A stretch of 64,000 nt of DNA, taken from positions 586 through 64,585 of the forward strand of contig JAJAPY010000019.1 in the NCBI GenBank assembly GCA_020523885.1, given 5' to 3'. Position numbers and translations under genes: made by a program. The notes under the pieces were generated by a model. The model had not been told where the DNA came from and did not search any database. It was given only the letters and a program-made list of their open reading frames with translations. Positions 4,391 to 32,193 of the stretch are shown in pieces. Numbering within the stretch: the first letter of the stretch is position 1; each line of letters starts with the position of its first letter. Origin of the DNA: Candidatus Liberimonas magnetica. Its GTDB lineage: Bacteria > Elusimicrobiota > Endomicrobiia > Endomicrobiales > JAFGIL01.

Positions 4391-4413
4391 ATACTTATTG
4401 ACATGACTCATCT

Positions 4414-4490
4414 GTCATTGTGAGGGAGCATGGCGACCAAAGCAATCTATCGAATTTACACCGAGATTGCTTCGCTTCGCTCGCAATGAC
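4414..4490. repeat. GTCAT-type imperfect inverted repeat
   Basis: gtcattgtgag...aagcaatc (4414-4447) against gattgcttcgcttcgctcgcaatgac (4465-4490). Lies just after the stop of the upstream gene. Confidence 0.6.
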
Positions 4491-4544
4491 GGCTTTATAA
4501 TGTTCTCAAGTCGAACTATGTAAATAGGCAACTAAAATAATAAC

Positions 4545-5708
4545 ATGAAAAAAGAATTGACAAACGAACTTGAGGTCTTAAAAGAAAAAGGGCTTTACAG
4601 AAGCCTAAAGATCATATCTTCATATTCCGAAAAAGAGATTGTAATAGACGGGATAAAATATATGAATTTCTCATCTAACAACTATCTCGGGATGTCCCTG
4701 CGTCCTGAAGTAAAAAAGGCAGCTATAGATGCTATAAACAAGTACGGCTGCGGCGGCACCTCATCGCGGCTTATCTGCGGGACATTAGACGTTCATAAAG
4801 AGCTGGAAGAAAAGCTCGCCAGGCTAAAGTCCAAAGAAGCATCCCTTGTTTTTCCGAGCGGTTTTTCAACTAATCAGGGGATAATAAGCACTCTATTTTC
4901 AAGCGGCGACGCAATAATAATGGACAAACTTAACCATGCTTCCCTGTGGGACGGGGCAAGTTTGAGCAAGGCAAGGATATTCATTTACGAGCACAAAGAT
5001 ATGGAGTCTTTGGAGAAAATTTTAAAACGCGCGCAAAGCTATAAAAAGCGTTTGATAGTTACAGATACTGTTTTTTCTATGGACGGCGACCTTGCACCTC
5101 TTAAAGAAATAGCTTATCTTGCAAAAAAATATAGTGCCGTAACAATGATCGATGAAGCTCATGCCACGGGTGTGTTCGGGGAAAAAGGAAGCGGGCTTGC
5201 AGAAGAATTAGGAGTTGAAAAAGAAATAGATATCGTAATGGGCACGCTTTCAAAAGCCATAGGTTCTTCCGGCGGGTTTGTCTGCGCGGATAAAGAGACA
5301 ATAGAATATCTGATAAATAAAAGCCGCGCATTCATTTATACGACATCGCTTGCGCCTGCAAGCGTTTGCTCTGCTATAAAGGCCCTTGAGATAATAGAAA
5401 GAGAACCGGAAAAAAGAAAGAAACTGCTTGAAAATGCAAAGTATTTAAAAAATAATCTTAATGCCCTGGGTTTTGATACTTTAGAATCAGAAAGCCAGAT
5501 AATACCTCTTTTTACAGGCGAAGTAAGTAAAACCCTGGAGATTTCGTCAAAGCTTATGGATGCCGGGATATATGTCCCTGCCATAAGGCCGCCTACCGTA
5601 GCCGAAGGTAGATGCAGGCTGAGGTTTTCCCTGACAAGCCAGCATAGTAAAGAGGATATAGATAAATTGATTGAAACAATAAAGACAGAGTTAAAATTAA
5701 GAAAATAA
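4545..5708 (+). CDS. bioF: 8-amino-7-oxononanoate synthase
   Basis: PLP-dependent acyltransferase motifs DEAHATGVFG and GTLSKAIGSSGG (Lys), about 387 aa, in biotin-cluster context. Confidence 0.85.
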   Translation: MKKELTNELEVLKEKGLYRSLKIISSYSEKEIVIDGIKYMNFSSNNYLGMSLRPEVKKAAIDAINKYGCGGTSSRLICGTLDVHKELEEKLARLKSKEASLVFPSGFSTNQGIISTLFSSGDAIIMDKLNHASLWDGASLSKARIFIYEHKDMESLEKILKRAQSYKKRLIVTDTVFSMDGDLAPLKEIAYLAKKYSAVTMIDEAHATGVFGEKGSGLAEELGVEKEIDIVMGTLSKAIGSSGGFVCADKETIEYLINKSRAFIYTTSLAPASVCSAIKALEIIEREPEKRKKLLENAKYLKNNLNALGFDTLESESQIIPLFTGEVSKTLEISSKLMDAGIYVPAIRPPTVAEGRCRLRFSLTSQHSKEDIDKLIETIKTELKLRK

Positions 5709-5728
5709 GATATGATGTAAAAAAGGGT

Positions 5729-5757
5729 GTCATTCCCGAAATTAGTAATCGGGAATC
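5729..5757. repeat. GTCAT-type hairpin
   Basis: gtcATTCCCGAaattagtaaTCGGGAATc: 8-bp stem, 9-nt loop, 21 nt after the bioF stop. Confidence 0.6.
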
Positions 5758-5761
5758 TAAA

Positions 5762-5790
5762 AATAAGTAAAGCAAGTAAAGCCAGGCACG
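5762..5790 (+). repeat. shared module M3 (aataagtaaagcaagtaaagcc...)
   Basis: The first 22 nt are identical, and about 27 of 29 overall, to the reverse complement of 32625-32654. A degenerate third copy sits near 31202-31224. Confidence 0.6.
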
Positions 5791-5925
5791 TAAATCCGTA
5801 AATAGAGTTAGTGTAGTTAGAGAAGCCTGACGTGGAAATCAAGCAATGTTTATAAAAATTATTATTATCCTAGCAGTAAACCTATTTTCTATATTTATAC
5901 CTTCAAATAAAAAACTAAATCACTT

Positions 5926-5970
5926 AATTCGAGGGACACAATACATAATTCTGAATAATATTCCAGCAAG
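5926..5970 (+). repeat. 45-bp direct repeat, copy 1 (left flank of Fic cassette)
   Basis: aattcgagggacaCaatacataattctGaataaTattccagcaag matches 7125-7169 at 42 of 45 positions. Confidence 0.85.
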
Positions 5971-6049
5971 TAGAAGGGGAGTTAGGTAATAAGGTATTTG
6001 GAAAAAATGGGAAATGTTTTCAATGGTTACGAAATCGTAAGGAGGTAAA

Positions 6050-7084
6050 ATGAATTCCTTAAAGAACGATAAAATTAAGTTGCCTCTGGGGTCTGTGTGG
6101 CTGATGAATTCCGTTGCCGAGTACAAGGGTAAGCAGGAGCTGTATGATAAACAATCACCGCAGGTTTTGAAATCATTGCTGGAAATGGCACTTATTCAAA
6201 GTGCGGAATCGTCCAACCGTATTGAAGGAATAACTGTTGAAAAGAACCGCCTGAAATCTTTGGTTCTTGGCCACAGCAAGCCTCGGGACCGCTCGGAAAC
6301 AGAGGTTGCCGGGTACAGGAATGCTCTTAACTTGATTCACAAAAAGCATGATAGCCTGCGAATAACACCTGAAACGATACAGGAATTGCACCGGCTCAGC
6401 CATGCCAATGCATAGGATGCAGGGAAATGGAAAGAAAGAGATAATGATATTATTCGCAAACATTCAGACGGCAGAATGGAAGTCATTTTTAAGCCGGTGA
6501 GCGCCGCAAAAACTCCGGAAATGATGGAGCAATTATGCCGTGCGTATGAAAATAGCATAGACCAACTTCGCTATCCCGATATGTATGCCATAGCCTGCCT
6601 GGTTCTTGATTTTTTAAGTATTCATCCGTTTCGGGACGGCAACGGCAGAGTATCACGGCTTTTGACATTGCTTGTGTTGTATCAGCATGGGTATAAAGTC
6701 GGAAAATATATAAGCATTGAACGGATAATAGAACAATCCAAAGAAACATATTATGAAGCTCTTAATAAGAGTTCTAAAAACTGGCATGAGGCAAAACACG
6801 ATATATTCCCCTGGTTTAATTATTTTCTGGGAACTATATTGTCCGCGTATAAGGAATTTGAAGAGCGTGCCGGCAAAATAAAAGCCGCTAAAGGGGCGAA
6901 AACAGGTATTATTGTTAAGGCTGTTGAAAGCCAGCATGGAGAATTTTCTATATCCGACATCGAGAGCGAAAGCCCGGGCGTCAGCCGGATCATGATAAAG
7001 AAAGTCCTGCATCAGTTAAGCAAAGAAAAGAAAATTAAATCCCTTGGAAAGGGACAAGCAGCCAAATGGAAGAGAATGGTATAA
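6050..7084 (+). pseudogene. Fic/DOC-family AMP transferase interrupted by one in-frame TAG
   Basis: ORFs 6050-6415 and 6476-7084 are in the same frame, separated only by TAG at 6413-6415. HPFRDGNGRVSR Fic motif lies downstream, SNRIEG inhibitory-helix motif upstream. Coding sense continues across the stop (DAGKWKERDNDII). Confidence 0.75.
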
Positions 7085-7124: not shown

Positions 7125-7169
7125 AATTCGAGGGACAGAATACATAATTCTAAATAAAATTCCAGCAAG
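7125..7169 (+). repeat. 45-bp direct repeat, copy 2 (right flank of Fic cassette)
   Basis: aattcgagggacaGaatacataattctAaataaAattccagcaag, 42 of 45 identical to 5926-5970. Confidence 0.85.
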
Positions 7170-7200
7170 AAAACACGCCTTGTTAAATGAACTAAAAATT

Positions 7201-7566
7201 ATGAATGAATATCCAAAAAAATCAGGATAAAATTGAAAGAACTTGCAGGGTTATCTTAGTCAAAGAGAACTTGATGCAGGGTTGAAATTGTTACATGAAA
7301 AATTTAATGATTGGGAGAAGGGAAAAATTGATTGTTTTGAATTAAATGAATATATACATAAATTCCATAATAGTGTATCACGTGAAATCTGGAAAAAGTA
7401 TAACCAGCCTAAAACTGGTAATTGGGGACATACAACGTTGTTTGATAATACGATATTCAAAAGTATTATATGCCATATTCAATATTGTATTTGGAAAATG
7501 GAACGGGGGGGGAAGACAGTTAAAAAGAAGAAGCAGCCTCTGCGTATACAAATAAGAAGGGTTTAA
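7201..7566 (+). pseudogene. decayed XRE-family HTH gene fused in frame to repeat-derived sequence
   Basis: Frame A gives GYLSQRELDAGLKLLHEKFNDWEKGK, with XRE HTH spacing (LSQxEL-13 aa-WExGK). Helix 1 (IRIKLKELAG) is in another frame after an A7 tract, and ATG 7201 is followed by two in-frame stops. The 3' half overlaps repeat module M2. Confidence 0.4.
7435..7469 (+). repeat. shared module M2, copy 1
   Basis: acgttgtttgataatacgatattCaaaagTattat is identical to 31155-31189 at 33 of 35 positions. Confidence 0.75.
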
Positions 7567-7571
7567 AAGAA

Positions 7572-8210
7572 ATGAATAAAGGAATATTTATCACGGCAAC
7601 CGATACTGAGGTGGGGAAGACTTACATTTCCTGCCTGCTTGCACAGGAGCTTGTAAAAGGGAAATGTAAAGTCGTAGGAATGAAACCTGTTTCTGCGGGG
7701 TCAAGAGATGACGCAAAAAAGCTTATTAAGGCTTCCGGTGTTAAAGAAAAGATAGAAACAGTAAATCCGCTGTTTTTTAAGTACCCGCTTGCCCCGTATG
7801 CCTCGGCGCTTATTGAGAATAGGAAAATAGACCTGTCTTTGGTCTGGAAAAACTATAAAGAACTTTCAACAAAATATGAGTTTATGATAGTTGAAGGTAT
7901 TGGCGGTTTAATGGTGCCGGTCAAAAAGGATTATTATGTGCTTGATCTGATAAAGGGTTTTAAGCTTCCGGTACTTATAGTTGCAAGGCCGGGCCTTGGG
8001 ACTATCAATCATGTTCTTCTGACCCTAGAGGCACTAAAGAAAGCAGGTGTTAAGGTTTTAGGTATAGTAATTAATGACAAAAAAAGACACAGTCTTTCTG
8101 AAAAAACAAATCCAAAAACATTAAAATCTTTGACCGGGCTTCCTGTCCTTGAAGTCCCGCATAATAAAAAAATAGATTTAAAAAGGAACAAATGGCTGAC
8201 AGGGCAATAA
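7572..8210 (+). CDS. bioD: dethiobiotin synthetase
   Basis: N-terminal TDTEVGKT P-loop, VEGIGGLMVP, about 212 aa; overlaps the bioA start. Confidence 0.85.
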   Translation: MNKGIFITATDTEVGKTYISCLLAQELVKGKCKVVGMKPVSAGSRDDAKKLIKASGVKEKIETVNPLFFKYPLAPYASALIENRKIDLSLVWKNYKELSTKYEFMIVEGIGGLMVPVKKDYYVLDLIKGFKLPVLIVARPGLGTINHVLLTLEALKKAGVKVLGIVINDKKRHSLSEKTNPKTLKSLTGLPVLEVPHNKKIDLKRNKWLTGQ

Positions 8211-9643
8211 ACACGCAAAAACTGATAAACGATGACAAAAGGTATATCTGGCACCCGTTTACCCAGATGGCAGACTGGGCCAAAGATGACCCATCTAAAG
8301 CTCTTGTTATAGAACGGGGCAAAGGGAATTATCTTTACGATACTTCCGGCAGAAAATATATAGATGGTGTCTCAAGCCTCTGGGTCACTGTTCACGGGCA
8401 CAATAATACAAATATAAATAATGCTATAAAGGCCCAGTTGTCAAAGATAGCTCATTCCACTTTTCTCGGCCTTACTCATGAACCTGCGATAAAGCTTGGA
8501 AAAGAACTTGTAAAGATCGTTCCTGACGGTTTAACAAGAGTGTTTTATTCAGATAACGGGTCAACGTCAGTTGAGATAGCACTTAAGATGGCATACCAAT
8601 ACTGGAAACACAAAGGAGACAAAAACCGGAATAGTTTTTTATCGCTAAAAAATGCCTATCACGGGGACACTATCGGCTCGGTCTCGGTAGGCGGTACAGA
8701 CCTTTTCCATAAGGCATTTAAAAACCTGCTTTTTAAAACATACTTTGCGCCTTCGCCGTACTGCTTTAGATGCGAACACCGAGTTCAGAGTTCAGAGTTC
8801 GGAGTTCGGAGTAAAAACCTTAAACATCATTGTAAATTAATGGGTTGTAGCGGGCAATGCATAGCGGGCGTTGAAAGCATACTGAAAAAACACGGCAAGG
8901 AAATTGCAGGGGGTATTGTTGAGCCGATGATACAGGGGGCTTCGGGCATGCTTACTATGCCGCCGGGGTATATGAAAGAATTTGAAAAAATTATCAAAAA
9001 ATATGGGATACTTCTTATCTGTGATGAGGTAGCTACTGGTTTTGGAAGGACAGGCAGGATGTTTGCCTGCGAGCATGAAAATATCAAGCCTGACCTCATG
9101 TGCGTGGCTAAAGGCATAACCGGAGGGTATTTGCCGCTTGCAGCGACATTTGCCACGGAAAAAATATATAAAGCTTTTCTTGGCAGGTATGAAGAATTTA
9201 AAACGTTTTTTCACGGCCATACTTATACGGCAAACCCTCTGGGCTGCGCCGCAGCTCTTGCGAACTTGGAGATATTTAAGGATGATAAGGTCCTAAACAA
9301 AATACAGGATAAGATAAAGTGTTTAGAAAAAGAACTGCAGAATTTAAAATATCTGGAATTTGTAGGTGATATAAGGCATATCGGCCTCATGGCAGGGATC
9401 GAGCTTATAAAAAGTATAGATATAGGTAAAGGTAGAAATAAAGGGAAAAATAGAATAGAGGATTTTGAAGCTAGAGATAAAATAGGCGCAAAAGTATGCG
9501 CCCAATGCAGGAATTATGGGGTATTGCTAAGGCCTTTAGGGAATGTTATCGTGCTTATGCCGCCTTTAAGCATAACAAATAACGAAATAAAAAAGATTGT
9601 CGAAAGTATAAAAAACTCTGTATTGAAAATATGCAAAAAATAG
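8192..9643 (+). CDS. bioA: adenosylmethionine-8-amino-7-oxononanoate aminotransferase
   Basis: WHPFTQM, DEVATGFGRTG and KGITGGYLP (PLP Lys) are class-III aminotransferase motifs of the BioA type. Confidence 0.9.
   Translation: MADRAINTQKLINDDKRYIWHPFTQMADWAKDDPSKALVIERGKGNYLYDTSGRKYIDGVSSLWVTVHGHNNTNINNAIKAQLSKIAHSTFLGLTHEPAIKLGKELVKIVPDGLTRVFYSDNGSTSVEIALKMAYQYWKHKGDKNRNSFLSLKNAYHGDTIGSVSVGGTDLFHKAFKNLLFKTYFAPSPYCFRCEHRVQSSEFGVRSKNLKHHCKLMGCSGQCIAGVESILKKHGKEIAGGIVEPMIQGASGMLTMPPGYMKEFEKIIKKYGILLICDEVATGFGRTGRMFACEHENIKPDLMCVAKGITGGYLPLAATFATEKIYKAFLGRYEEFKTFFHGHTYTANPLGCAAALANLEIFKDDKVLNKIQDKIKCLEKELQNLKYLEFVGDIRHIGLMAGIELIKSIDIGKGRNKGKNRIEDFEARDKIGAKVCAQCRNYGVLLRPLGNVIVLMPPLSITNNEIKKIVESIKNSVLKICKK
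8781..8812 (+). repeat. heptamer tandem repeat (GAGTTCR x 4.5) inside bioA
   Basis: gagttca gagttca gagttcg gagttcg gagt, encoding RVQSSEFGVRS between the CFRC and CKLMGCSGQC cysteine segments. Confidence 0.8.
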
Positions 9644-11152: not shown

Positions 11153-12238
11153 ATGCGGATAGTAATTAAAATAGGCACAAATTTATTGACAACCCAAGAT
11201 TCCTGCCTGGACAATAAGAGGATAAAAAGTATTGCGCAAGACGTGGCAGCCTTGAAAAAGGACGGGCACCAGATAGTTATTGTTACGTCCGGCGCTATTT
11301 GTGCCGGCATGGGTAAATTGAAGCTAAACGTAAAACCCGCAGACTTAAAAGAAAAGCAGGCGCTGGCAGCTATAGGCCAGCCGATCCTTATGGATACCTA
11401 CAAAGAATATTTTGATGATGCCGGCATTGTCATAGCCCAGTTGCTTCTGACTAGGAGCGATTTTGACCAGAGGCAGAATTATTTGAATGCCCGCAGTACT
11501 CTTTTTAAGCTGCTGGATATGGGGGCTGTACCCATAATTAATGAGAACGATACGGTGGCTGTAGAAGAGATCAATTTCGGAGAGAACGATACCCTTGCGG
11601 CTTTAGTGGCTGCAAAGATTTCTGCCCAGTGTTTGATACTTTTAACCGATGTGGATGGTTTATACAAAGGAGCTGTGGGCAAAAGCGAGATAATAGCTAA
11701 GGTTGACAAGATAACCGATGATATAGAGAAATATGCAACCGTTGTTTCATCAAGCGGCAAAGGAAGCGGCGGTATGCTCAGCAAAATAAATGCCGCGAAA
11801 ATAGCGGCTGCAAACGGCGTAAAAACCTTTATAGTAAACGGATTAAAAGAAAACGCTATAATCAAGGCAGCAAGCGGCCAGGAGATAGGGACGGTTTTTA
11901 TGCCGAGGCAGGCTCTTGAGCCTAGAAAATGCTGGATAGCTTTTGGAGCAAAATGCCGGGGCAAGATCATCATAGATGACGGCGCCGTAACCGCTATAAG
12001 AGAAAGGAAAAAAAGCCTGCTTCCCTCGGGCATTGTCGCAGTCGATGGAAAATTTGAAATAGGAGACACAATAAGCATATCCGACAGGTCCGGAAAAGAG
12101 GTAGCGCGCGGCCTTACATATTATTCCAGCGAAGTGCTTGATAAGATCAAAAAAAAGAAATCATCCGAAATAAAAAAAATCTTGCCTAATGTAGATTACG
12201 AAGAAGCAGTCCACCGCGACAACTTAGTCATTTTATAA
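11153..12238 (+). CDS. proB: glutamate 5-kinase with C-terminal PUA domain
   Basis: IVIKIGTN, VTSGAI, NENDTV and a C-terminal PUA-like region (GIVAVDGKFEIGD...ARGLTYYSS). Confidence 0.9.
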   Translation: MRIVIKIGTNLLTTQDSCLDNKRIKSIAQDVAALKKDGHQIVIVTSGAICAGMGKLKLNVKPADLKEKQALAAIGQPILMDTYKEYFDDAGIVIAQLLLTRSDFDQRQNYLNARSTLFKLLDMGAVPIINENDTVAVEEINFGENDTLAALVAAKISAQCLILLTDVDGLYKGAVGKSEIIAKVDKITDDIEKYATVVSSSGKGSGGMLSKINAAKIAAANGVKTFIVNGLKENAIIKAASGQEIGTVFMPRQALEPRKCWIAFGAKCRGKIIIDDGAVTAIRERKKSLLPSGIVAVDGKFEIGDTISISDRSGKEVARGLTYYSSEVLDKIKKKKSSEIKKILPNVDYEEAVHRDNLVIL

Positions 12239-12365
12239 ATATTGAGCCCCACGGGCAGGCCCGTGGTACCAAAATCCCTACCACCTACGGTGGGGCGAAA
12301 TCCCGCTTGATTTACGGATAAACCTGTAGTTTTTAAGCGGCGGGATAAATAAATTTACAATTAAA

Positions 12366-12399
12366 AATAGGCTTTTGTATATAACTAAGCCTATTTTTT
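12366..12399 (+). terminator. rho-independent terminator after proB
   Basis: 9-bp stem aataggctt/aagcctatt, 12-nt loop, followed by a T6 run. Confidence 0.65.
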
Positions 12400-12421
12400 G
12401 ATATATAAGGATATAAGATAA

Positions 12422-13969
12422 ATGAAAAAAAGATTGCTGCTAGTCTTTTTTGGATTATTCTTTAGTTTGATATTGCTTGAAGCAGGCCTGCGCCTGGGCG
12501 GTTTTATATATAATTCCAGGCAGGAGATAAGGAACAGAGAAGAGCTGAAGAAGAAGAAACAGGTTTACAGAATATTGTGTTTAGGTGAATCAACAACGCA
12601 GGGAGAATATCCGAAATATCTTGAAGAAGTATTAAATAACAGGGATATAGGGATAAGGTTCAGTGTGATAGACAAGGGCAGGCAAGCGACTACAACGACG
12701 TTTATATTAGCAAAGCTTGAAGAAGATCTTGATAAATATAAACCGGATATGGTCATAACCATGATTGGAGTAAATGATGACCGGACAGATATGGTATACG
12801 AATATGAAAATGGTGGAATAAAAAGCCTTATTAAATCAATTAAAATATATAAACTAGCAAGGTTGCTAGAACAGCATATAAAGAGAAGGATAGAAGAATT
12901 AAGTACGATTAAAGGAAACATAAAGCAGAATAGAGTAGAAGAAATCAATGAATTAAGCAGTAAGAAACTATTAGAAGCAAAAGGAAAAGAAAGTGGAAAC
13001 AAGATAGTCGGAACCCATGCGGATAATGAAGTAAAGTATGCGCAAGAATGGAGTTTTTGCAGTGAAAAAGAAGAGCCGATACTTAAGAAAACAATAGAAA
13101 GTGATCCCAATAACAAAAATAAATATATAGAATTAGTTAAATTTTATATAGAATCAGGAAAGTATGGAAAAGCTATGAGTGTATCTAAAAAGCTGATAGC
13201 TTTAAATCCAATAGATAAATTGGGGTATTTTTATTTAATGAGAATAAAACAATATGTAAAAGAAGAATCAAAGTATAGAAAAGCAATACAGATAAACCCA
13301 AAAGATCAAGAAGCGAATTTAAAGTTGGGTCATTTTTATGAAAGAATAGGTAGTTCTAATGAGGCAGAGAAAATTTATGAAAAAGCAATAAAATCAGGTG
13401 TAAATAACGAATCAATATATTCTCGTTTAGCTAATTGTTATAGGCGTGAAAATAAGTATGAAGAAGCAATGGCTATGTATAAGAAAGCAATAGAGCTAAA
13501 TCCTGAAAAAATAATGTTATTTTATCTGCTTGAAGAGATTTACAGGAAGCAAGGAAAAGGAAAAGAAGCAGAAGAAATCATGAACAAAATAGTTGATAAA
13601 GGGAAAGGGCCATTAAGAATAAAGTATTTGAGGCCTAATGAGGGGTATGAATCAGAATATTTTGGAAGGCCTGTAATATATAACTACAAAAAGTTAAGTG
13701 GAGTATTAAAAAAGAGGGGAATAAGATATATATGCATGCAATACCCTCTAAGGAAGATAGGAATATTGAGAAATATATTTTATAAAGATAAAGATATAGT
13801 ATTCGTTGACAATGAGAAGATATTCACGGATGTCGTTCAGAAAGAAGGGTATGATGAATATTTTAGAGATATATTTGCAGGAGATTTCGGCCATTGTACG
13901 ATAAAGGGCAATAAACTTTTAGCCAAGAACATAGCAGATACGATAATAAAAGAAGTATTTCATAAATAA
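12422..13969 (+). CDS. membrane-anchored SGNH/GDSL-like hydrolase split by an internal TPR array (paralog 1 of 4)
   Basis: N-terminal TM helix, CLGESTTQ (block I Ser), MIGVNDD (block III), about 5 degenerate TPRs, then C-terminal YICMQYP...VFVDNE...GDFGHCTIKGNKLLA (block V His). Confidence 0.65.
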   Translation: MKKRLLLVFFGLFFSLILLEAGLRLGGFIYNSRQEIRNREELKKKKQVYRILCLGESTTQGEYPKYLEEVLNNRDIGIRFSVIDKGRQATTTTFILAKLEEDLDKYKPDMVITMIGVNDDRTDMVYEYENGGIKSLIKSIKIYKLARLLEQHIKRRIEELSTIKGNIKQNRVEEINELSSKKLLEAKGKESGNKIVGTHADNEVKYAQEWSFCSEKEEPILKKTIESDPNNKNKYIELVKFYIESGKYGKAMSVSKKLIALNPIDKLGYFYLMRIKQYVKEESKYRKAIQINPKDQEANLKLGHFYERIGSSNEAEKIYEKAIKSGVNNESIYSRLANCYRRENKYEEAMAMYKKAIELNPEKIMLFYLLEEIYRKQGKGKEAEEIMNKIVDKGKGPLRIKYLRPNEGYESEYFGRPVIYNYKKLSGVLKKRGIRYICMQYPLRKIGILRNIFYKDKDIVFVDNEKIFTDVVQKEGYDEYFRDIFAGDFGHCTIKGNKLLAKNIADTIIKEVFHK

Positions 13970-13972
13970 GCC

Positions 13973-15499
13973 ATGAAAAAAAAGGTTGTATTAATATTTT
14001 TAGGAGTAATATTTAGCTTGGTATTGATTGAAGCAGGCCTGCGCCTGGGCGGTTTTATATATAATTCCAGGCAGGAAATAAGAAACAGGGAAGAGCTGAA
14101 GAAGAAACAGGTTTGCAGAATATTGTGTTTAGGTGAATCAACAACGCAAAAGCAGTATCCGAAATATCTTGAAGAAGAATTAAATAACAGGGATATAGGG
14201 ATTAAGTTCAGCGTGATAGATAAAGGAAGGGCAGGCACTAATACGAACTTTATAGCAGCTAAGCTTGAAGAAGACCTGGATCGGTATAAACCGGATATGA
14301 TAATAACGATGATGGGTATAAATGATGGCAGGGATGATATAGTATTTGAATATGAAAATGGCGGAAGAAAAAGCCTTATAAGATCAATTAAAATATATAA
14401 GCTGGCAAGGTTATTAAAGCTGCATATAAACAGCAAGCTGGCAGAGGTAAATAAAATTAACGATAGCATAGAAAAAACAGATTACAATAATGAAATAATG
14501 TGTGTAAAGAAAGGGCATTATTACATGGACAGGGGAGAATATGAGAAGGCAGAAGAGATGTTTAGAAGAGCACTGGAGTTAAATCCAAAGTCAGTATGGA
14601 ATTATACAATATTAGGAAGCTTGTACAGGGATTTAAATAGAAATGAAGAAGCAGAAAAGATGTACCAAGGAGCGATAAATATAAACCCAAAATATGATCA
14701 GGGGTATTTAGGGTTAGGGGATTGTTTTTTTAAAAAAGGAAAGTATAAAGACGCAGAAGCTATGTATAAGGAAGCACTGGAGTTAAATCCAAAGTCAGTA
14801 TGGAATTACAAAGCCTTAGGAGACTTTTACGAGGATTTAAATAGAAATGAAGAAGCAGAAAAGATATATCAAAGGGCGATACAGATAAACCCTGATAGTG
14901 ATAGGGTATATTTCTGGTTAGGAGATTATTTTTTAGAAAGAGGAAGGTACGAAGAAGCAGAAAAAATGTATAAAAAGTCGATACAAATAAATCCAAAAAA
15001 TGAAATAACATATAAAAAGTTAAGTGACTCTTATAGGAAGCAAAAGAAATATTCAGAATCAATGAAAATATTTGATCAAGGCGTAAAAGTTGAAAAAGTT
15101 ATTCAAGGCAGAGATGATGTTGTAGATGATGAAAAAAAGTTAGTATTAAAAAAACTAGGCAAAGAAAAACCATTCAAATCAAAATATTTCGGGGCGGCTG
15201 CGATATATAACTATAAAAAGTTAAGAAAGATCGTGAAAAAAAGAGGGATAAAGTATGTTTGTGTTCAATACCCAACGCGTAAGTTGGATGATTTAAAATC
15301 AATATTTAAGGAAGATGAAGATATAGTATTTGTGGATAATGAAAAGACATTTAAGGAAGCAGTTAAAGAAGAAGGGTATAATGAATATTTCATAGATAGA
15401 ATGGCTGAAAATTTCGGCCATTGCACGTTAAAAGGCAATAAGCTCTTAGCCAGGAATATAGCTGATGCGATAATAAAGGAGGTTTTTAACAGGCAATAA
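13973..15499 (+). CDS. SGNH-like/TPR paralog 2 of 4
   Basis: Same N- and C-terminal modules as paralog 1 (CLGESTTQ, MMGINDG, ENFGHCTLKGNKLLA) with about 5 TPR units between. Starts 3 nt after paralog 1 ends. Confidence 0.65.
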   Translation: MKKKVVLIFLGVIFSLVLIEAGLRLGGFIYNSRQEIRNREELKKKQVCRILCLGESTTQKQYPKYLEEELNNRDIGIKFSVIDKGRAGTNTNFIAAKLEEDLDRYKPDMIITMMGINDGRDDIVFEYENGGRKSLIRSIKIYKLARLLKLHINSKLAEVNKINDSIEKTDYNNEIMCVKKGHYYMDRGEYEKAEEMFRRALELNPKSVWNYTILGSLYRDLNRNEEAEKMYQGAININPKYDQGYLGLGDCFFKKGKYKDAEAMYKEALELNPKSVWNYKALGDFYEDLNRNEEAEKIYQRAIQINPDSDRVYFWLGDYFLERGRYEEAEKMYKKSIQINPKNEITYKKLSDSYRKQKKYSESMKIFDQGVKVEKVIQGRDDVVDDEKKLVLKKLGKEKPFKSKYFGAAAIYNYKKLRKIVKKRGIKYVCVQYPTRKLDDLKSIFKEDEDIVFVDNEKTFKEAVKEEGYNEYFIDRMAENFGHCTLKGNKLLARNIADAIIKEVFNRQ

Positions 15500-15503
15500 G
15501 AAA

Positions 15504-17543
15504 ATGAGATTAAAAAAGACAGGATTAATATTATTAGGGGTATTGGCAAGTTTGGTATTGCTTGAAACGGGCTTGCGCATAAGCGGGTTTATATACACTT
15601 CAAAACAGGAGCTAAGGAACAAGGAAGAGCTGAATAAGAAAGGGGTATACAGGATACTATGTTTAGGGGAATCGATGACACGAGAGCAGTATCCGAAATA
15701 TCTGGAGGATGAGCTAAATAGCAGAGGTATAGGAATAAAGTTCAGCGTGATAGATAAAGGCAAAGGCGGGGTATTTACAAATTTCATATTAGCAAGTTTA
15801 GAAAACAATTTAGATAAATACAGGCCTGATATGGTAGTAACAATGATGGGGGCAATGGATGGCAGCAGCGATGTGGTATATGAATATGATAAGTCAGGAA
15901 GTTATTATAGGAAGCTGAAGGTATATAAACTGTTTAAGTTAATAAAACTGCACATGAAAAGTAAGCTTGGAGAGATGGAAAAAGCTATAGGAAGGGTGAC
16001 AAAGAAATCCGGTGAAGGTATAAAAGAGTTGAGCTGGGGTAAGTTGTTAAAATGGAAAATTACCGGAAGAGGCGATAATTATAAAGAAACTGATGGCGAA
16101 GCAAAAAAGCCTTCAGAAGTTAGTGTAAGTTATGTGATAAAAGGGCACTTTTACAGGGATAGAAAAGAATATAAAGAAGCAGAAGAGATGTATAAGAAGG
16201 CAATAGAAGCAAGCCCGGATTATGACCAGGGGTATTTGGGGTTAGGGGATTGTTATAGGAACACGGGCAGATATGAAGAAGCAGAACAGGTATATAAGAA
16301 AGCGCTGAAGATAAATCCAAAGTCAGAATGGAATTATGCAGTATTAGGAGATTTATTCAGGGGTTTAAAAAGGCATGAAGAAGCAGAACAGATGTATAAG
16401 AAGTCAGTAGAAGTAAACCCTAATTATGATCATGGATATTTAGGGCTGGGAGATAATTATAGGGATGAGCTAAAATATGAAGAAGCCGGGGAGATGTACA
16501 ATAAAGCTATAGGACTAAATCCGAAAAATGACCAGGGCTATATGGGGTTAGGGGATTGTTATAGGAATGAGCGAAAGTATAAAGAAGCCGAGGAAATGTA
16601 TAGCAAAGCGATGGAGCTGAATCCGAAGAACGAGAGCACATATATAAATTTAGGCAGTTGTTACAGCCGGGAAGGAAAGTATAAGGAAGCTGAGAAGGTT
16701 TTTAAAAAAGCGATGAAACTGAACCCGAAAAATGCTGATACGTATATTAGCCTAGGAGATAGCTATAGAGATGGGCAGAAATATAAAAAAGCAGATGAGA
16801 TGTACAGGAAAGCGGTTGAGCTAGATCCAAAGAACGAAAGCGCATATGGGAGTATCGGGGATCGTTATATGGATGAGCGAAAGTATAAGGAAGCTGAAGA
16901 AGTTTTTAAAAAGATTTTAGAAATAGTTCCTAAAAGCGAATGGGCCTACAGCAATTTAGCCACTATTTACTGGAATCAACGTAAGTTTAAAGAAACCGAA
17001 GAAGTATATAAAAAAATGTTAGAAATAAACCCGGCACAGAGGGATGCTTTCTACGGCCTTTCTGTCCTTTATGAAGCACAAAATAAATATAAACAGGCAG
17101 AGAAGATGTTAAAAGAAGGTGCGAAACCGGAAGAAGATGATAAAAGATCAGATGAAAACATAAATGTGACAATTGATGACGATATGGGGATGAAGCATCA
17201 GGTAATAAAAGAAAAAAGCAGGTCGTTATATTTTGGTTCAGGAACAGTATATAATTATAAAGCGCTGAGGATGATATTAAAGAAAAGAGGGGTAACGTAT
17301 GTATGCGTTCAATACCCTAGGCGGAAAGTGGAAGATATGAAAGATATATTTAATTATGACAAAGATATGATATATGTAGACAATGAAAAGACATTTAAGG
17401 AAGCAATGAAGAAAGAGGGGTATGATAAATATTTCAAGGACAGGACTTGTGGCGAATTTGGCCATTGCACGGTAAAAGGCAATAAGCTCCTGGCCAAGAA
17501 CATAGCCGATGCGATAATGAAGGAAGTATTTAAGAGGCAATAA
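15504..17543 (+). CDS. SGNH-like/TPR paralog 3 of 4 (longest, most diverged flanks)
   Basis: CLGESMTRE, MMGAMDG, about 11 TPR units with consensus YKEAEEMYKKAxELNPKN, C-terminal GEFGHCTVKGNKLLA. Confidence 0.65.
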   Translation: MRLKKTGLILLGVLASLVLLETGLRISGFIYTSKQELRNKEELNKKGVYRILCLGESMTREQYPKYLEDELNSRGIGIKFSVIDKGKGGVFTNFILASLENNLDKYRPDMVVTMMGAMDGSSDVVYEYDKSGSYYRKLKVYKLFKLIKLHMKSKLGEMEKAIGRVTKKSGEGIKELSWGKLLKWKITGRGDNYKETDGEAKKPSEVSVSYVIKGHFYRDRKEYKEAEEMYKKAIEASPDYDQGYLGLGDCYRNTGRYEEAEQVYKKALKINPKSEWNYAVLGDLFRGLKRHEEAEQMYKKSVEVNPNYDHGYLGLGDNYRDELKYEEAGEMYNKAIGLNPKNDQGYMGLGDCYRNERKYKEAEEMYSKAMELNPKNESTYINLGSCYSREGKYKEAEKVFKKAMKLNPKNADTYISLGDSYRDGQKYKKADEMYRKAVELDPKNESAYGSIGDRYMDERKYKEAEEVFKKILEIVPKSEWAYSNLATIYWNQRKFKETEEVYKKMLEINPAQRDAFYGLSVLYEAQNKYKQAEKMLKEGAKPEEDDKRSDENINVTIDDDMGMKHQVIKEKSRSLYFGSGTVYNYKALRMILKKRGVTYVCVQYPRRKVEDMKDIFNYDKDMIYVDNEKTFKEAMKKEGYDKYFKDRTCGEFGHCTVKGNKLLAKNIADAIMKEVFKRQ

Positions 17544-17548
17544 AAGAC

Positions 17549-19486
17549 TTGAGATTAAAAAAAGCAGGTTTAATATTACTCGGAATATTGGCAAGCATGA
17601 TATTGCTTGAAATAGGAATGCGCCTGGGCGGTTTTATATATAATTCCAGGCAGGAGATAAGGAACAGAGAGGAACTGAAGAAGAAACAGGTTTACAGAAT
17701 ATTGTGTTTAGGTGAATCAACAACGCAAGAGCAGTATCCGAAATATCTTGAAGAAGTATTAAATAACAGGGATATAGGGATAAAATTCAGCGTGATAGAT
17801 AAAGGAAGATTCGGCACTAATACGAACTTTATAGCAGCTAAGCTTGAAGAAGACTTGGATAAATATAGACCCGATATGGTAATAACGATGATGGGTGTAA
17901 ACGATGCCAGGGACGATATAATATTTGAATATGCAGATGACGGAAGAAGGAGCCTTATTAAATCAATTAAAATATATAAACTGGCAAGGTTGTTAAGGCT
18001 GCATATAAAGAGTAAGATAGAAGAATTAAAAATGGGAAAAGGAAGGATAAAGCAGAATATAATAGAAATAGTAAAAGAATTAAATAGTAAAAAGCGAATA
18101 GAAAGAGCAGGAAAGGAAGGACGAAATAATATAACAAAGACATCTTCGGATAATGGAGTAATATATGCTGAGAAAGGCGATGATTACAGAAATAAGCAAG
18201 AATATGAGAAAGCAGAAGAGATGTACAAAAGAGCGATAGAGCTAAACCCCGATTACGATCAAGAGTATTTTGGATTAGGGCATTGTTACGAGGTTGCAGG
18301 AAGGTATGAAGAAGCTGAAGAGATGTATGAGAAAGCACTAAAACTAAACCCAAAATCACTCTGGAATAATAAAGACCTGGGATTTTTTTATTTAAATTTA
18401 AAGAGGTTTGAAGAAGCAGAAGAAATGTTTAAAAAGGCGATAGAGATATATCCTAAGAATGCTCAAGTATATTCTGATTTAGGGAATTGCTATAAAGTGG
18501 AAGGAAAATATGAAGAGGCGGAGAAAGAATATAAAAAAGCGGAAACAATGTTTCAGAAAGTTCTATTAGCAAATCCTAAAGAAGAAGAGGCATGTTTTGG
18601 ATTAGGGGATTGTTACATGGACACAGCTAGGTACAAAGAAGCAGAAGAGATATATAAAAGAGCGATACAGCTGAACCTTAATTTTTATAAGGGGTATGCA
18701 AGGCTGGGGGAATGTTACTATCACATGCGCAAATACAAAAAATCAGAAGAGATGTATAAAAGAGCGATAGTTTTGAACCCTGATTATTATAAGTCGTATT
18801 TAGGGCTGGGGGAATGTTTCGATACCACGCAGAAATGCAAAGAAGCAGAAAAGATATATAAAAGAGCAATAGAAGTTGACTCTAAAAAATATCAGGGGTA
18901 TTTCTACCTGGGAAATTGTTATAAGGATCAAGGAAGATATGAAGAAGCAAAGGAAGAATTAAAAAAATCCATAGAAATAAACCCAAATAATAAAATGACA
19001 CATGTAAGGCTATACGAAACTTATAAGGCACAAAAGAAGTATAAGGAATCAATGGAAATACTTAATCGAATCATGGCGCTTGAAAAAAATAGCCAAGGCA
19101 GATATAAAGTTACAGATGATAAGATAAATATAGTTATAAAAAAACTGAACAATGAAGGGCAGATCAATTCACAGTATTTCGGAGTAGCTACTATATACAA
19201 CTATAAAAGGTTAAGGAAGATTTTAAAGAAAAGAGGGGTAAAATACGTTTGTGTTCAATATCCTATGCGGGAAGTGGATGATTTAAAATTAATATTTAAG
19301 GAAGAAAAAGACATAATATTTGTTGACAATAAAAGAGTATTTAAAGAAGCAATTAACAAACAAGGGTATAATGAATATTTCAGGGATAGAATTGATGAAA
19401 AATTCGGCCATTGCACGATAAAAGGCAATAAGCTCTTAGCCGAAAACATAGCTGATACAATAATTAGGGAAGTGCTTAATAAGTAA
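17549..19486 (+). CDS. SGNH-like/TPR paralog 4 of 4 (TTG start)
   Basis: Its 5' module is nearly identical at nucleotide level to paralog 1. CLGESTTQE, MMGVNDA, about 9-10 TPR units, C-terminal EKFGHCTIKGNKLLA. Confidence 0.65.
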   Translation: MRLKKAGLILLGILASMILLEIGMRLGGFIYNSRQEIRNREELKKKQVYRILCLGESTTQEQYPKYLEEVLNNRDIGIKFSVIDKGRFGTNTNFIAAKLEEDLDKYRPDMVITMMGVNDARDDIIFEYADDGRRSLIKSIKIYKLARLLRLHIKSKIEELKMGKGRIKQNIIEIVKELNSKKRIERAGKEGRNNITKTSSDNGVIYAEKGDDYRNKQEYEKAEEMYKRAIELNPDYDQEYFGLGHCYEVAGRYEEAEEMYEKALKLNPKSLWNNKDLGFFYLNLKRFEEAEEMFKKAIEIYPKNAQVYSDLGNCYKVEGKYEEAEKEYKKAETMFQKVLLANPKEEEACFGLGDCYMDTARYKEAEEIYKRAIQLNLNFYKGYARLGECYYHMRKYKKSEEMYKRAIVLNPDYYKSYLGLGECFDTTQKCKEAEKIYKRAIEVDSKKYQGYFYLGNCYKDQGRYEEAKEELKKSIEINPNNKMTHVRLYETYKAQKKYKESMEILNRIMALEKNSQGRYKVTDDKINIVIKKLNNEGQINSQYFGVATIYNYKRLRKILKKRGVKYVCVQYPMREVDDLKLIFKEEKDIIFVDNKRVFKEAINKQGYNEYFRDRIDEKFGHCTIKGNKLLAENIADTIIREVLNK

Positions 19487-19518
19487 TAAGAAGATAATTT
19501 TTAAGAAGATAAATTATA

Positions 19519-19547
19519 TTGACATAGTCATATTTTTTTGCTATGAT
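19519..19547 (+). promoter_or_regulatory. sigma70-like promoter upstream of rplU
   Basis: TTGACA (19519-19524), 17-bp spacer, TATGAT (19542-19547); 48 nt before the rplU ATG. Confidence 0.5.
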
Positions 19548-19594
19548 ACACAGACCATAATAAATAAATTAATATATTTACAGGAGAAAATTCG

Positions 19595-19906
19595 ATGTAT
19601 GCGGTAGTCCAAACTGGCGGAAAACAATATAAAGTTGAAGAAGGGAATACCCTTTTAATTGAAAAGTTACCTTTAAAAGAAGGCGAAGAAGTGGTGCTGG
19701 ATCAGGTGCTTTTGATAGGTGACGGCGAAAAAGTATCTGTCGGCAGGCCTCATATAAAAGGAGCTAAGGTGTTGGCTGAAGTCCTCAGGCAGACCAGAGG
19801 CCCTAAAATAATTATTTTTAAGAAACGATCAAAAAAGAGTTATAAGAAAACTTTAGGCCACAGGCAGGACCTGACCGAGATCAAAGTAAAAAAGATTGAA
19901 AATTAA
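19595..19906 (+). CDS. rplU: 50S ribosomal protein L21
   Basis: MYAVVQTGGKQYKV N-terminus, 103 aa, followed by rpmA and obg. Confidence 0.95.
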   Translation: MYAVVQTGGKQYKVEEGNTLLIEKLPLKEGEEVVLDQVLLIGDGEKVSVGRPHIKGAKVLAEVLRQTRGPKIIIFKKRSKKSYKKTLGHRQDLTEIKVKKIEN

Positions 19907-19987
19907 ATAAGAAAAGGATTTGCTCGCCTCTCCGGCGGGCCCGTCAGTTTACCCACCGATGAGGAGGGATAAGGCGGGGAGGGTTTT

Positions 19988-20254
19988 ATGGCTCATACGA
20001 AATCACAAGGTTCAAGTACAAACGGCCGCGATTCTGCAGGCCAACGGTTAGGTGTTAAGGTATACGGCAGCCAGAAGATTAATGCAGGCGGCATCATAAT
20101 CAGGCAATGCGGAACTAAATTCCATCCCGGCAACAACGTGGGGATGGGCTCAGATAATACGATCTATGCGAAAGTTGACGGTATTGTAAAGTTTGAATGG
20201 AAAGCCGGAAACAGGCGTTATGTAAGTGTTTACCCCGCCCAGGCAAAGGCATGA
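19988..20254 (+). CDS. rpmA: 50S ribosomal protein L27
   Basis: [16 protein letters not shown]...RLGVK...[14 protein letters not shown]. No N-terminal propeptide is present. Confidence 0.95.
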
Positions 20255-20326: not shown

Positions 20327-21574
20327 ATGTTCGTAGATAAGGTTAGTATTTTTGTTACAGCCGGACGCGGTGGCGACGGCTGTATTTCTTTTCGTAGGGA
20401 AAAATATATCCCCCTGGGCGGGCCTGACGGCGGGAACGGCGGCAAAGGCGGAGATGTATTCCTCGAAGTAAACCCTCATCTTTCCACACTCCTTGATTTT
20501 ACGTACAAACCGCATTTTAAAGCTAAAGACGGCAATGCCGGCCAGGGAAGCAATAAATACGGAAGGGGTGGGGAGGAACTGGTAATTAAAGTACCTCCGG
20601 GCACAGTAGTTTTTAATAATAACAAGATCATTGCAGACCTAAAAGAAAACGCTCAAAAAATACTTATTGCAAAAGGCGGAAGAGGAGGAAGAGGCAACGC
20701 ATCGTTCAAGACAAGCAGGAACACAGCGCCGAGAATCTCGGAAAAAGGCGAGCCCGGCCAGAAGGTAACGCTTAAGCTTGAATTAAGGCTTATAGCCGAT
20801 GTCGGCCTCGTAGGTTTCCCCAATGCAGGCAAGTCAACTTTCCTAAAAAGAATCACCTCAGCAAACCCGAAGATAGCAGATTACCCTTTCACTACGCTTT
20901 CCCCTAACCTGGGAGTCTCAAATCACAAAGGCAGGAGTTTCGTAATAGCCGATATACCCGGGCTGATCGAAGGCGCACACCGCGGGAAAGGGCTTGGAGA
21001 CGAATTCTTAAGGCATGTAAAGCGCACGCGTGTTTTAATCCATATAATAGATGTTTTCGGGTATGAAAATAAGCCTGCCTACAAAAATTACCGTACGATA
21101 AACAAAGAACTTCTTGATTATTCAAAACACCTGGCAGAAAAACCCATGGTCATAGCTGCAAATAAAATGGATCTGACCGGATCGGATAAAAAATTAGAAC
21201 AATTAAAAAAACACTTAAAAGGCAATAAAATATTTCCAGTATCCTCTGCAACCGGTGCTGGGATAAAAGACCTGTTAAATGAAGTTATAAGACAATTAAG
21301 CAAAGCTTTTGTCGAAGAAGAAATGCAGCAGGATTTCAAGGAATATGTTTATGAACCGGAGTTTAAGATCGAAAAAACCGGAGGCATATTCGTGCTTACA
21401 GGCCCGAAGATCGAAAGGCTGGGGTTTATGACTAATTTTACCCAGGAAGAATCCCTTTTAAGGTTCCAGAAGATACTTGAAAAAATGGGCGTGGATAAAC
21501 AGATGGAAAAGATGGGTGCAGTTGAAGGCGATGTTGTTAGGATCGGCGAACAAGAATTTACCTACGAGAAATGA
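20327..21574 (+). CDS. obg: GTPase Obg/CgtA
   Basis: Gly-rich Obg fold (GGDGCISFRREK, GGNGGKGGDV), G1 GFPNAGKST, G3 DIPGLIEGA, G4 NKMD, and a C-terminal OCT-like domain. Confidence 0.95.
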   Translation: MFVDKVSIFVTAGRGGDGCISFRREKYIPLGGPDGGNGGKGGDVFLEVNPHLSTLLDFTYKPHFKAKDGNAGQGSNKYGRGGEELVIKVPPGTVVFNNNKIIADLKENAQKILIAKGGRGGRGNASFKTSRNTAPRISEKGEPGQKVTLKLELRLIADVGLVGFPNAGKSTFLKRITSANPKIADYPFTTLSPNLGVSNHKGRSFVIADIPGLIEGAHRGKGLGDEFLRHVKRTRVLIHIIDVFGYENKPAYKNYRTINKELLDYSKHLAEKPMVIAANKMDLTGSDKKLEQLKKHLKGNKIFPVSSATGAGIKDLLNEVIRQLSKAFVEEEMQQDFKEYVYEPEFKIEKTGGIFVLTGPKIERLGFMTNFTQEESLLRFQKILEKMGVDKQMEKMGAVEGDVVRIGEQEFTYEK

Positions 21575-31644: not shown

Positions 31645-32193
31645 ATGATATTTAATCTTCGTTCTAAAATCACCAGGAAAATACTTAATTTTTTCTTTCT
31701 AAACGATAAATCCAGGGTTTACGTTAATGAAATAGCCCGCCAGATCGAAGAAGAACCAAAGAATGTGTATAGGATATTAATCCGCCTTGAGGACTCAGGA
31801 ATACTAACCAGTGAGTTTTCGGGGCGTGAAAGGTATTTTACGGCAAACTTAAAAAGCAGCCTCTTAAAAGAATATAAAACCATTTTCATGAAAACTTCGG
31901 GTATTGAATCAATGCTAAAAAAAGCAGTAACGAAAAGACCTGAAATAAAAGAAGCTTTTATTTATGGGTCCTATGCAAGCGGGAAATATAAGCCGGGAAG
32001 CGATATTGACCTCTTGCTGGTAGGCAATCACAAAAGCATGGATGCTCAAAAAATGATTTTTGACCTGCAAAAAACGTCAGGCAGTGAGATAAATGTCATT
32101 AATATTACCCCTGAAAACTTTAATAATAAAAAAACGGAAAAGGACCAGTTGATATCTTCTATTTTTTCCGGGAAAGTAATAAAACTATTATGA
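31645..32193 (+). CDS. winged-HTH fused to a minimal nucleotidyltransferase (MNT-type antitoxin-like)
   Basis: N-terminal wHTH-like segment VYVNEIARQIEEEPKNVYRILIRLEDSGIL, then NTase signature GSYASGKYKPGSDIDLLLVG. The stop overlaps the next ATG (ATGA). Confidence 0.7.
   Translation: MIFNLRSKITRKILNFFFLNDKSRVYVNEIARQIEEEPKNVYRILIRLEDSGILTSEFSGRERYFTANLKSSLLKEYKTIFMKTSGIESMLKKAVTKRPEIKEAFIYGSYASGKYKPGSDIDLLLVGNHKSMDAQKMIFDLQKTSGSEINVINITPENFNNKKTEKDQLISSIFSGKVIKLL

Follow-up and report, generated by a model that had tools for sequence, protein, structure and literature searches.

Background

SGNH enzymes are a main source of acyl modification of bacterial envelopes, with AlgJ and DltD as examples of anchored SGNH-like transferases that act outside the cytoplasm on envelope polymers, and arrays of tetratricopeptide repeats (TPRs) are general protein-docking devices. 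Here we describe a family of predicted enzymes in which the two are combined, the TPR array lying inside the SGNH fold, starting from four head-to-tail genes in a 64,000-nucleotide stretch (hereafter the window) of contig JAJAPY010000019.1. The host, Candidatus Liberimonas magnetica, is represented by a metagenome-assembled genome (MAG) of a magnetotactic member of the Elusimicrobiota, order Endomicrobiales.

The closest described systems are two enzymes in which an SGNH or SGNH-like domain carries an accessory module. In TviD, the O-acetyltransferase of the Vi antigen, O-acetylation does not need the TPRs, which bind TviE and the membrane, and the Asp of block V is not essential either (PMC8760489). 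In Ape1, a periplasmic peptidoglycan O-acetylesterase, an inserted CBM35 domain sits by the active site and assists catalysis (PMC9487903; bioRxiv 10.1101/2021.09.23.461501). Reduced catalytic sets are also on record, as Ser-His dyads work in CE2 esterases (PMC9487903). Domain insertions in SGNH enzymes and fusions of SGNH-like domains to TPRs are already known; a TPR array within the SGNH fold, in a family as large as the one reported below, is undescribed in the literature searched.

Four tandem genes with a split catalytic module

The original prediction described four genes only 3–5 nt apart, coding for 515, 508, 679 and 645 aa, and the coordinates of the open reading frames (ORFs) agree: copy 1 (12422..13969), copy 2 (13973..15499), copy 3 (15504..17543) and copy 4 (17549..19486, with a TTG start) are co-directional on the forward strand, intact, and separated by 3, 4 and 5 nt. 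Copies 2–4 are 45–56% identical to copy 1 overall, copy 3 being the most divergent, and their end-to-end alignment breaks only in the center. All four share one layout: an N-terminal hydrophobic segment (the putative anchor), SGNH blocks I–III, a TPR insert and a C-terminal module of ~105 aa with block V.

Block I reads CLGES in every copy (copy 1, 12578..12592, with predicted nucleophile Ser57; copy 2, 14126-14140; copy 3, 15660-15674; copy 4, 17705-17719) and so contains the block I Ser of the SGNH/GDSL superfamily. In block II, the Gly of FSVIDKG, a candidate oxyanion residue, is invariant across the copies; three residues further on, copy 1 has A, as do 18/90 family ORFs in the survey described below, with G in 54/90. 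Block III is GVND in copies 1 (12767..12778) and 4 (17894-17905) and GIND in copy 2 (14315-14326), all three thus retaining the oxyanion Asn of GxND, which copy 3 has lost (GAMD, 15849-15860). Block V starts with DFGH in copy 1 (13883..13894), NFGH in copy 2 (15410-15421), EFGH in copy 3 (17454-17465) and KFGH in copy 4 (19400-19411), and continues as C-T-x-K-G-N-K-L-L-A in all of them. The His is therefore present four times and the Asp once, and the full Ser/Asn/Asp/His set is found only in copy 1.

Antisense ORFs of 100–183 aa within the four genes were rejected as overlapping Leu/Ser/Phe-rich shadows of the purine-rich coding strand, and terminator-like hairpins at 12486 and 14037 turned out to be coding sequence of the conserved GLRLGGF motif.

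Position of the TPR array in the SGNH fold

The N-terminal halves of the window proteins match Pfam GDSL_2 (PF13472) only over profile positions 1-97 of 178, with E-values of ~1e-6 to 1e-7; intact copy 1 matches PF00657 at 24.3 bits over positions 1-105 only, and the isolated C-terminal module matched no Pfam family. When the two halves of copy 1 were fused artificially, the match spanned positions 1-208 of the 208 in PF00657 (24.4 bits; cutoff 23.6), with the corresponding fusion of copy 2 scoring 18.3 bits against the same cutoff. Searching with the fused sequence identified three natural relatives devoid of TPRs, P0004, P0008 and P0014 (281–304 aa; mutually 47–50% identical), in which the two halves are joined by a short linker alone and which match PF00657 over positions 1-207.

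P0008, modeled with AlphaFold (predicted template modeling score [pTM] 0.71), has the three-layer alpha/beta/alpha fold of the superfamily, with its five-stranded parallel sheet. In a Foldseek search of the PDB, its top 50 matches were all SGNH hydrolases (E ~1e-6), including TesA, EstL5, Axe2, AlAXEase, a CE3 esterase and PatB, with target-normalized TM-scores of 0.55–0.72 for single-domain targets. A sequence profile built from the three TPR-less proteins also finds SGNH structures, among them 9otv (E = 4e-5), where the alignment sets HCTxxGN of the family onto the canonical block V HPNxxG. The 240–410 extra residues of the window proteins align after residue 174 of P0008 and before residue ~183. 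Residues 174-183 form a loop with a predicted local distance difference test score (pLDDT) below 50 in the model, bounded by a conserved helix after block III (156-172) and by the helix leading into strand 4 (189-208).

The full-length AlphaFold model of copy 2 (mean pLDDT 82.5, and 80–95 in both catalytic halves) places the elements in the same succession. A long N-terminal helix is followed by strand 1 (CLGES), a helix, strand 2, a helix and strand 3 (block III), then by a short strand, a low-confidence helix and six TPR-like helix pairs, and finally by a short strand, a helix, strand 4, a helix, strand 5, a helix, block V and the terminal helix. When this model was compared with the PDB using Foldseek, TPR proteins only were returned, with CTPR and OGT TPR structures as top matches, which makes the comparison uninformative on the catalytic halves. 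That the N- and C-terminal halves pack together in the window proteins is something we infer from the modeled TPR-less relatives.

Because these relatives join the two halves, cover the whole GDSL profile and model as SGNH folds only, we conclude that, as modeled, the TPR array occupies one surface loop of the SGNH fold, after block III. The split layout is not a chance arrangement, as it recurs in thousands of database proteins (see below). Both parts of the original prediction on this point, namely that blocks I–III and block V belong to one SGNH-type fold and that a TPR array of variable length interrupts it, are upheld by the PF00657 coverage of the fusion and of the TPR-less proteins, by the structural matches of P0008 and by the mapping of all window arrays to a single low-confidence loop.

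Repeat turnover and gene conversion

The inserts span 12899..13636 in copy 1 (aa 160-405, a linker plus the array), 14447..15163 in copy 2 (aa 159-397), 15975..17207 in copy 3 (aa 158-568) and 18026..19153 in copy 4 (aa 160-535), all on the forward strand. Significant Pfam TPR stretches (TPR_1, TPR_8; E down to 1e-63) number 3, 5, 9 and 8 in copies 1–4, so that the predicted presence of TPRs between the catalytic halves is confirmed for every copy; counted by the 102-nt register of the DNA, the arrays hold ~5–6, 6, ~10 and ~9 units. For copy 2, the latter count agrees with the helix pairs of the model (helices 171-381, pLDDT 90–98). Across copies 2, 3 and 4, units 1 to 3 and the final unit are homologous by position (66–75% DNA identity), and an identity of 84% between units 2 and 4 of copy 2 points to a two-unit duplication. 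Differences in array length fit internal gain and loss of 34-aa units, as judged from the sequences. Exchange of whole central cassettes between paralogs, which had been proposed, is not needed: the end units are positionally homologous, and unit duplication plus loss suffices.

The catalytic 5' modules appear to have followed a different course. A conversion-like tract is shared by copy 1 (12491..12655), copy 2 (14042-14203) and copy 4 (17621..17782), again on the forward strand, with 7–12 mismatches among the three in 162–165 nt, compared to 33–53 in the next 243 nt. For the pair of copies 1 and 4, the tract contains 7 mismatches and a 3-nt indel, and the remainder of the N-terminal module 53 mismatches in 243 nt; within 12491-12600 versus 17621-17727 there are exactly two substitutions and one 3-nt indel, just as first noted. 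The tract is not merely invariant DNA, since copy 3 differs from the other copies there at 36–37 sites. In the first 36 tract codons of copies 1 and 4, only two codons for identical amino acids differ, compared to ~18% over the whole module, and a permutation test on runs of matching variable sites gave p = 0.002–0.02 for the three pairs formed by copies 1, 2 and 4.

Copy 4 itself looks composite. Its first 24 codons show 15 mismatches to copy 3 versus 20–24 to copies 1 and 2, and beyond this leader its N-terminal module resembles copies 1 and 2, so that we regard it as a mosaic of a copy 3-like leader and a copy 1/2-like remainder. In a relative with 74% identity in Obg (L087), the two family genes share a ~40-codon tract of their own with two synonymous differences only, which by its sequence would be an independent case of gene conversion. 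Together, the runs test, the counts of synonymous differences and the tract in the relative support the view, also put forward in the original prediction, that the catalytic 5' modules have been partly homogenized by gene conversion. The accompanying statement that the 5' modules of copies 1, 2 and 4 are nearly identical holds for the ~165-nt tract and does not extend to the whole 450 nt, where identity is 81–86%.

Family size and conservation

Among 1.84 billion cluster representatives, the profile of the three TPR-less proteins retrieved 9,340 proteins at E<=0.001 and 2,123 clusters at E<=1e-30. Among the best 150 matches, 148 were matched in two or more stretches, which makes the split form the rule, and most are 410–730 aa long. 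In species-representative genomes, 410 confirmed stretches encode a relative; the best 80 of the 410 come mostly from Omnitrophota, and also from Elusimicrobia, Margulisiibacteriota and MAGs labeled Planctomycetales. Our survey took in 79 fetched loci and the window, with a family ORF present in 79 sources (78 of the fetched loci and the window). It comprised 90 ORFs in which both halves are present; their median length is 502 aa, and the insert has a median of 209 aa. Two or more copies occur in 29/79 sources and three or more in 10/79, often head to tail.

The nucleophile position is Ser in 90/90 ORFs, block I reads GES in 84/90, and GxND is found in most. Where a block V motif was recognized, it was DxxH in 67/80 ORFs, NxxH in 6/80 and ExxH in 3/80; Lys at the Asp site of block V and Met at the Asn site of block III each occur once in the 90-member survey, both in the window. 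A Cys stands four residues before the Ser in 90/90 ORFs and just after the His in 81/90, and this near-invariant pair beside the catalytic residues, Cys53 and Cys492 in copy 1, would fit a disulfide. Two further motifs are conserved in the family, the helix xRxYKLxRLLxLH after block III and the juxtamembrane LLExGLRxGGF.

Database names of family members are 'tetratricopeptide repeat protein', 'GDSL-type esterase/lipase family protein' or 'hypothetical protein'. NCBIfam offers no dedicated model, with generic TPR families only, all below their cutoffs, and our literature searches found no paper describing the family. Of what would have refuted the original prediction, a common annotated type with a known role, only the commonness applies: the layout is frequent in metagenomes, though the family is unnamed and has no known role.

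Genomic context and copy-number history

Gene order at the array is bioD, bioA, pgi, proB, the four copies, rplU, rpmA and obg. The insertion site is bounded upstream by proB (glutamate 5-kinase, 11153..12238) and downstream by rplU (ribosomal protein L21, 19595..19906), with obg at 20327-21574, all on the forward strand; rpmA was identified by synteny only. The Obg protein of the window is 100% identical to ObgE of Candidatus Liberimonas magnetica. The best promoter-like site of the region (19519-19547, forward strand; TTGACA, 17 nt, TATGAT and an upstream TG, 11/12 matches) lies upstream of rplU and suggests that the rplU operon has its own promoter after the array. GC content is 0.33–0.37 in 12001-20000 versus 0.40–0.44 in the flanks, with a GC skew of 0.29–0.41 and an AT skew of 0.25–0.28. 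These values fit the purine-rich Lys and Glu codons of the TPR arrays, so a foreign origin is not required.

Relatives differ in what they carry at this site. In L087, where the gene order is the same, the proB/rplU interval contains a pair of family genes (517 and 489 aa; 3805-6824) that overlap by 4 nt, one of them with GINY in place of GIND in block III. In a relative with 67% Obg identity (L089), no family member was found at the corresponding site (7132-9299), which is occupied by genes for a response regulator, a YchF GTPase and an AbiEii-like protein; the proB/rplU site appears to be a hotspot for variable content. Copy number there runs 0, 2 and 4 across the two relatives and the window. 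The catalytic modules of the window are 62–74% identical to the closest window copy and at most 54% to any other genome, so by sequence identity the four genes are lineage-specific tandem paralogs, each other's closest relatives. The 79 profile-fetched loci showed no synteny with the window, and their bioA-like matches (25–30% identity) proved to be other class III aminotransferases. An exact look-up of copy 2 in the assembly index gave no match. In an independent assembly of the same organism (L086; Logan contig SRR16235686_7709), the contig breaks inside copy 4. Such tandem arrays are thus probably under-assembled in short-read metagenomes, and copy numbers elsewhere may be underestimated.

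Across the family, genes for radical SAM, B12-radical SAM, polytopic-plus-TPR, NAD-epimerase/dehydratase, carbamoyltransferase or GT2 proteins lie within 4 kb in 41/79 sources. At L083 (4414-13295), a 379-aa family member overlaps a carbamoyltransferase gene in a cluster with PMT (GT-C), GT2 and AsnB (asparagine-synthase) genes, and judging by this gene content the locus looks like a glycan-modification cluster. It also contains two arylsulfotransferase-like genes, a DUF5989 gene and a radical SAM/SPASM gene, followed by the PMT GT-C gene. The window has a 568-aa PMT_2 (GT-C) protein with C-terminal TPRs (2684-4390, forward strand), whose gene is syntenic in both relatives (heading the block in L088 and L089). 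Polytopic membrane proteins with C-terminal TPRs and no PMT_2 match were seen within 4 kb of family members at eight other loci.

Elsewhere in the window, all on the forward strand, a Fic/DOC family protein is encoded among the biotin and aminotransferase genes (6476-7084), and an 885-aa NB-ARC (STAND NTPase) protein in a low-GC stretch (0.33–0.34) at 28483-31140. The latter gave no PADLOC match; downstream of it lies a nucleotidyltransferase ORF (NTP_transf_2/Polbeta, 31645-32193), and the stretch may be a defense or conflict island. A 460-aa protein made up nearly entirely of TPRs (62029-63411; TPR_1 E = 4e-91), without the SGNH halves, occupies another low-GC, purine-skewed stretch.

Discussion

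We suggest that the four genes encode anchored SGNH esterases or acyltransferases with a TPR solenoid inserted in one loop, and that these act outside the cytoplasm on envelope glycans or glycoconjugates, with the target determined by the TPR arm; we give this reading a probability of about 0.6. As for the likely chemistry, ester hydrolysis or acyl transfer is suggested by the conserved Ser, His, Asn and Asp. Mean K+R counts around the hydrophobic segment in the 90 members are 3.74 in the N-terminal flank and 1.98 in the C-terminal flank; under the positive-inside rule, this bias would put the catalytic domain and the TPR arm outside the cytoplasm. An envelope glycan or glycoconjugate as substrate is proposed with moderate confidence, being favored by the recurrent glycan-type neighbors, the L083 cluster and the PMT_2+TPR gene of the window.

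According to this proposal, a single N-terminal membrane pass would hold a periplasm-facing catalytic domain and TPR arm, and the Ser-His machinery would remove or transfer an acyl group, probably acetyl, on the glycan or glycoconjugate. The arm would start beside the active-site loops and dock a partner protein or the substrate, a role suggested by analogy with TviD and Ape1, and each paralog could direct the same chemistry to a different target. Copy 1, with its full set of residues, is most likely fully active; copies 2–4 would be weakened or dyad-type enzymes, possibly adaptors, with copy 3 most likely the one to be impaired.

Several observations weigh against this reading. The intact window proteins score 27–31 bits with PF13472, below the gathering score of 32.9. 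The neighbors of the array are housekeeping genes, no glycan gene directly adjoins it, and among the eight flanking genes scanned, from bioD (7572) to a PHP gene (22360), no acyl-donor partner of the MBOAT or AT3 type was seen. The block V Asp is missing from copies 2–4 and the oxyanion Asn from copy 3, and the best structural matches of P0008 include the lipid-active TesA. The topology is read from the positive-inside rule, and the function of the family as a whole is deduced from sequence, models and gene context.

The loss of catalytic residues raises the alternative that copies 2–4 are pseudoenzymes, serving as membrane-anchored TPR scaffolds or adaptors around one active enzyme. DxxH is confined to copy 1, with N, E and K in the others, copy 3 has GAMD instead of GxND, and the Lys and the Met, each seen once in the survey, both belong to window copies. 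At the same time, Ser, His and the flanking Cys residues are retained in all four copies, every ORF is intact, and NxxH and ExxH also occur elsewhere in the family; Ser-His dyads are functional in CE2 enzymes (PMC9487903) and TviD tolerates an Asp-to-Ala change (PMC8760489). We therefore consider general loss of catalysis in copies 2–4 improbable, if the most plausible of the alternatives. The D/N/E/K variation behind the suspicion, raised at the outset, that some copies may not be catalytic is present as described; it does not prove loss of activity, Ser-His dyads being known in SGNH enzymes (PMC9487903). Somewhat less probable, in our view, is a lipid-acting enzyme, i.e. a lysophospholipase, lipase or lipid acyltransferase of the membrane surface similar to TesA or GCAT, whose anchor and basic-hydrophobic helix would hold the active site at the bilayer while the TPR arm binds a regulator. 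This would agree with the place of TesA (lysophospholipase L1) among the best structural matches of P0008 (target TM-score 0.72), with 9otv, a lysophospholipase L1-like esterase, as the best sequence match in the PDB, and with the conserved xRxYKLxRLLxLH and LLExGLRxGGF motifs. However, carbohydrate esterases and PatB were matched equally well in the same structure search, the recurrent neighbors of the family are of the glycan type and not lipid-metabolism genes, and the amphipathicity of the helix after block III is inconsistent across copies. An in-plane membrane helix at this position had been considered and was dropped, since the hydrophobic moment picked different segments in different copies.

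It may also be that the enzyme faces the cytoplasm in the manner of TviD, O-acetylating a nascent polysaccharide with the TPRs docked to a glycosyltransferase. TviD is the only characterized SGNH-like enzyme with TPRs, which bind TviE and the membrane (PMC8760489), and GT2 and GT-C genes recur near family members. The charge bias favors an N-in, C-out orientation instead, the conserved Cys pair would suit an oxidizing compartment, and TviD differs in its Cys nucleophile, in the C-terminal place of its TPRs and in lacking an N-terminal anchor. No viaB-like context was seen around the window array, and this arrangement seems to us unlikely. A role in anti-phage defense or conflict, with variable TPR sensors coupled to a hydrolase effector, might be suspected from the fast diversification of tandem arrays in TPR length, from copy numbers that vary between relatives, and from the AbiEii-like gene at the same proB/rplU site in L089. 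In PADLOC, though, only generic TPR models matched, within the insert and not on the catalytic halves; no NTPase or nuclease partner is present at the array, and an N-terminal anchor with glycan-type neighbors is unlike a defense system, leaving this explanation very improbable. The envelope-directed esterase or acyltransferase thus remains the reading we prefer.

A bolder extension, which we offer as speculation with a small chance of being right, is that the family is a retargetable class of envelope acyl-esterases or acyltransferases. Here, the TPR solenoid would feed a bound protein or glycoconjugate to the Ser, with duplication, conversion and TPR turnover giving rise to new specificities, maybe alongside PMT_2+TPR proteins in protein-glycan modification in Omnitrophota and Elusimicrobiota. 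A family of >2,000 clusters with the array inside the catalytic fold would illustrate how an enzyme loop can accept a grafted repeat solenoid. It would also mark an uncharacterized envelope-modifying activity in candidate phyla, of which, to our knowledge, those that carry the family have no cultured representatives. Two evolutionary modes would meet in one gene, the catalytic module evolving in concert and the recognition module by repeat turnover. Members are at present labeled 'TPR protein' or 'GDSL lipase', and a family model of their own would set thousands of such records right.

Comparison with known systems

The window family is similar to the SGNH/GDSL superfamily at large (PF13472, PF00657; E. 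coli TesA, Axe2, CE3 esterases) in the block I Ser, the block II Gly, GxND and, as a family consensus, a block V of DxxH with xTxxGxxxxA after it. Strands and helices come in the same order, and the model of a TPR-less relative superposes on these structures. It differs in having GES and not GDS in block I, in the Cys residues flanking both Ser and His, in the N-terminal membrane anchor and the 240–410-aa TPR array after block III, and in that its intact window members fall short of the PF13472 cutoff.

PatB and the DUF459 O-acetyltransferases are extracytoplasmic SGNH-type enzymes acting on envelope polymers, and PatB structures are among the Foldseek matches. These enzymes are without TPRs, DUF459 scores 20–24 bits on the N half against a cutoff of 27.2, and no gene for an MBOAT protein (PatA) was seen among the ORFs scanned around the array. 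In OGT and the TMTC/PMT_2+TPR GT-C transferases, too, a catalytic domain is paired with a TPR superhelix, which selects the substrate or partner. The model of copy 2 has OGT TPR domains among its top matches, and PMT_2+TPR genes co-occur with family members; these enzymes have another catalytic fold and another chemistry, and their TPRs are terminal, not inserted.

Ape1 (PMC9487903; bioRxiv 10.1101/2021.09.23.461501) provides the parallel for an accessory domain inserted in an SGNH fold near the active site. Its insert is a beta-sandwich, CBM35, described between helix alpha2 and strand beta14, and its gene is a single-copy member of the OAP cluster, unlike the tandem window genes with their all-helical TPR inserts. 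TviD (PMC8760489) in turn has an SGNH-like catalytic domain and TPRs in one polypeptide. Where TviD-type enzymes have a Cys nucleophile, C-terminal TPRs and a viaB/TviE context, the window proteins have a Ser nucleophile, inserted TPRs and housekeeping neighbors. The TPRs of TviD follow a complete catalytic domain, whereas those of the window family are inserted into it.

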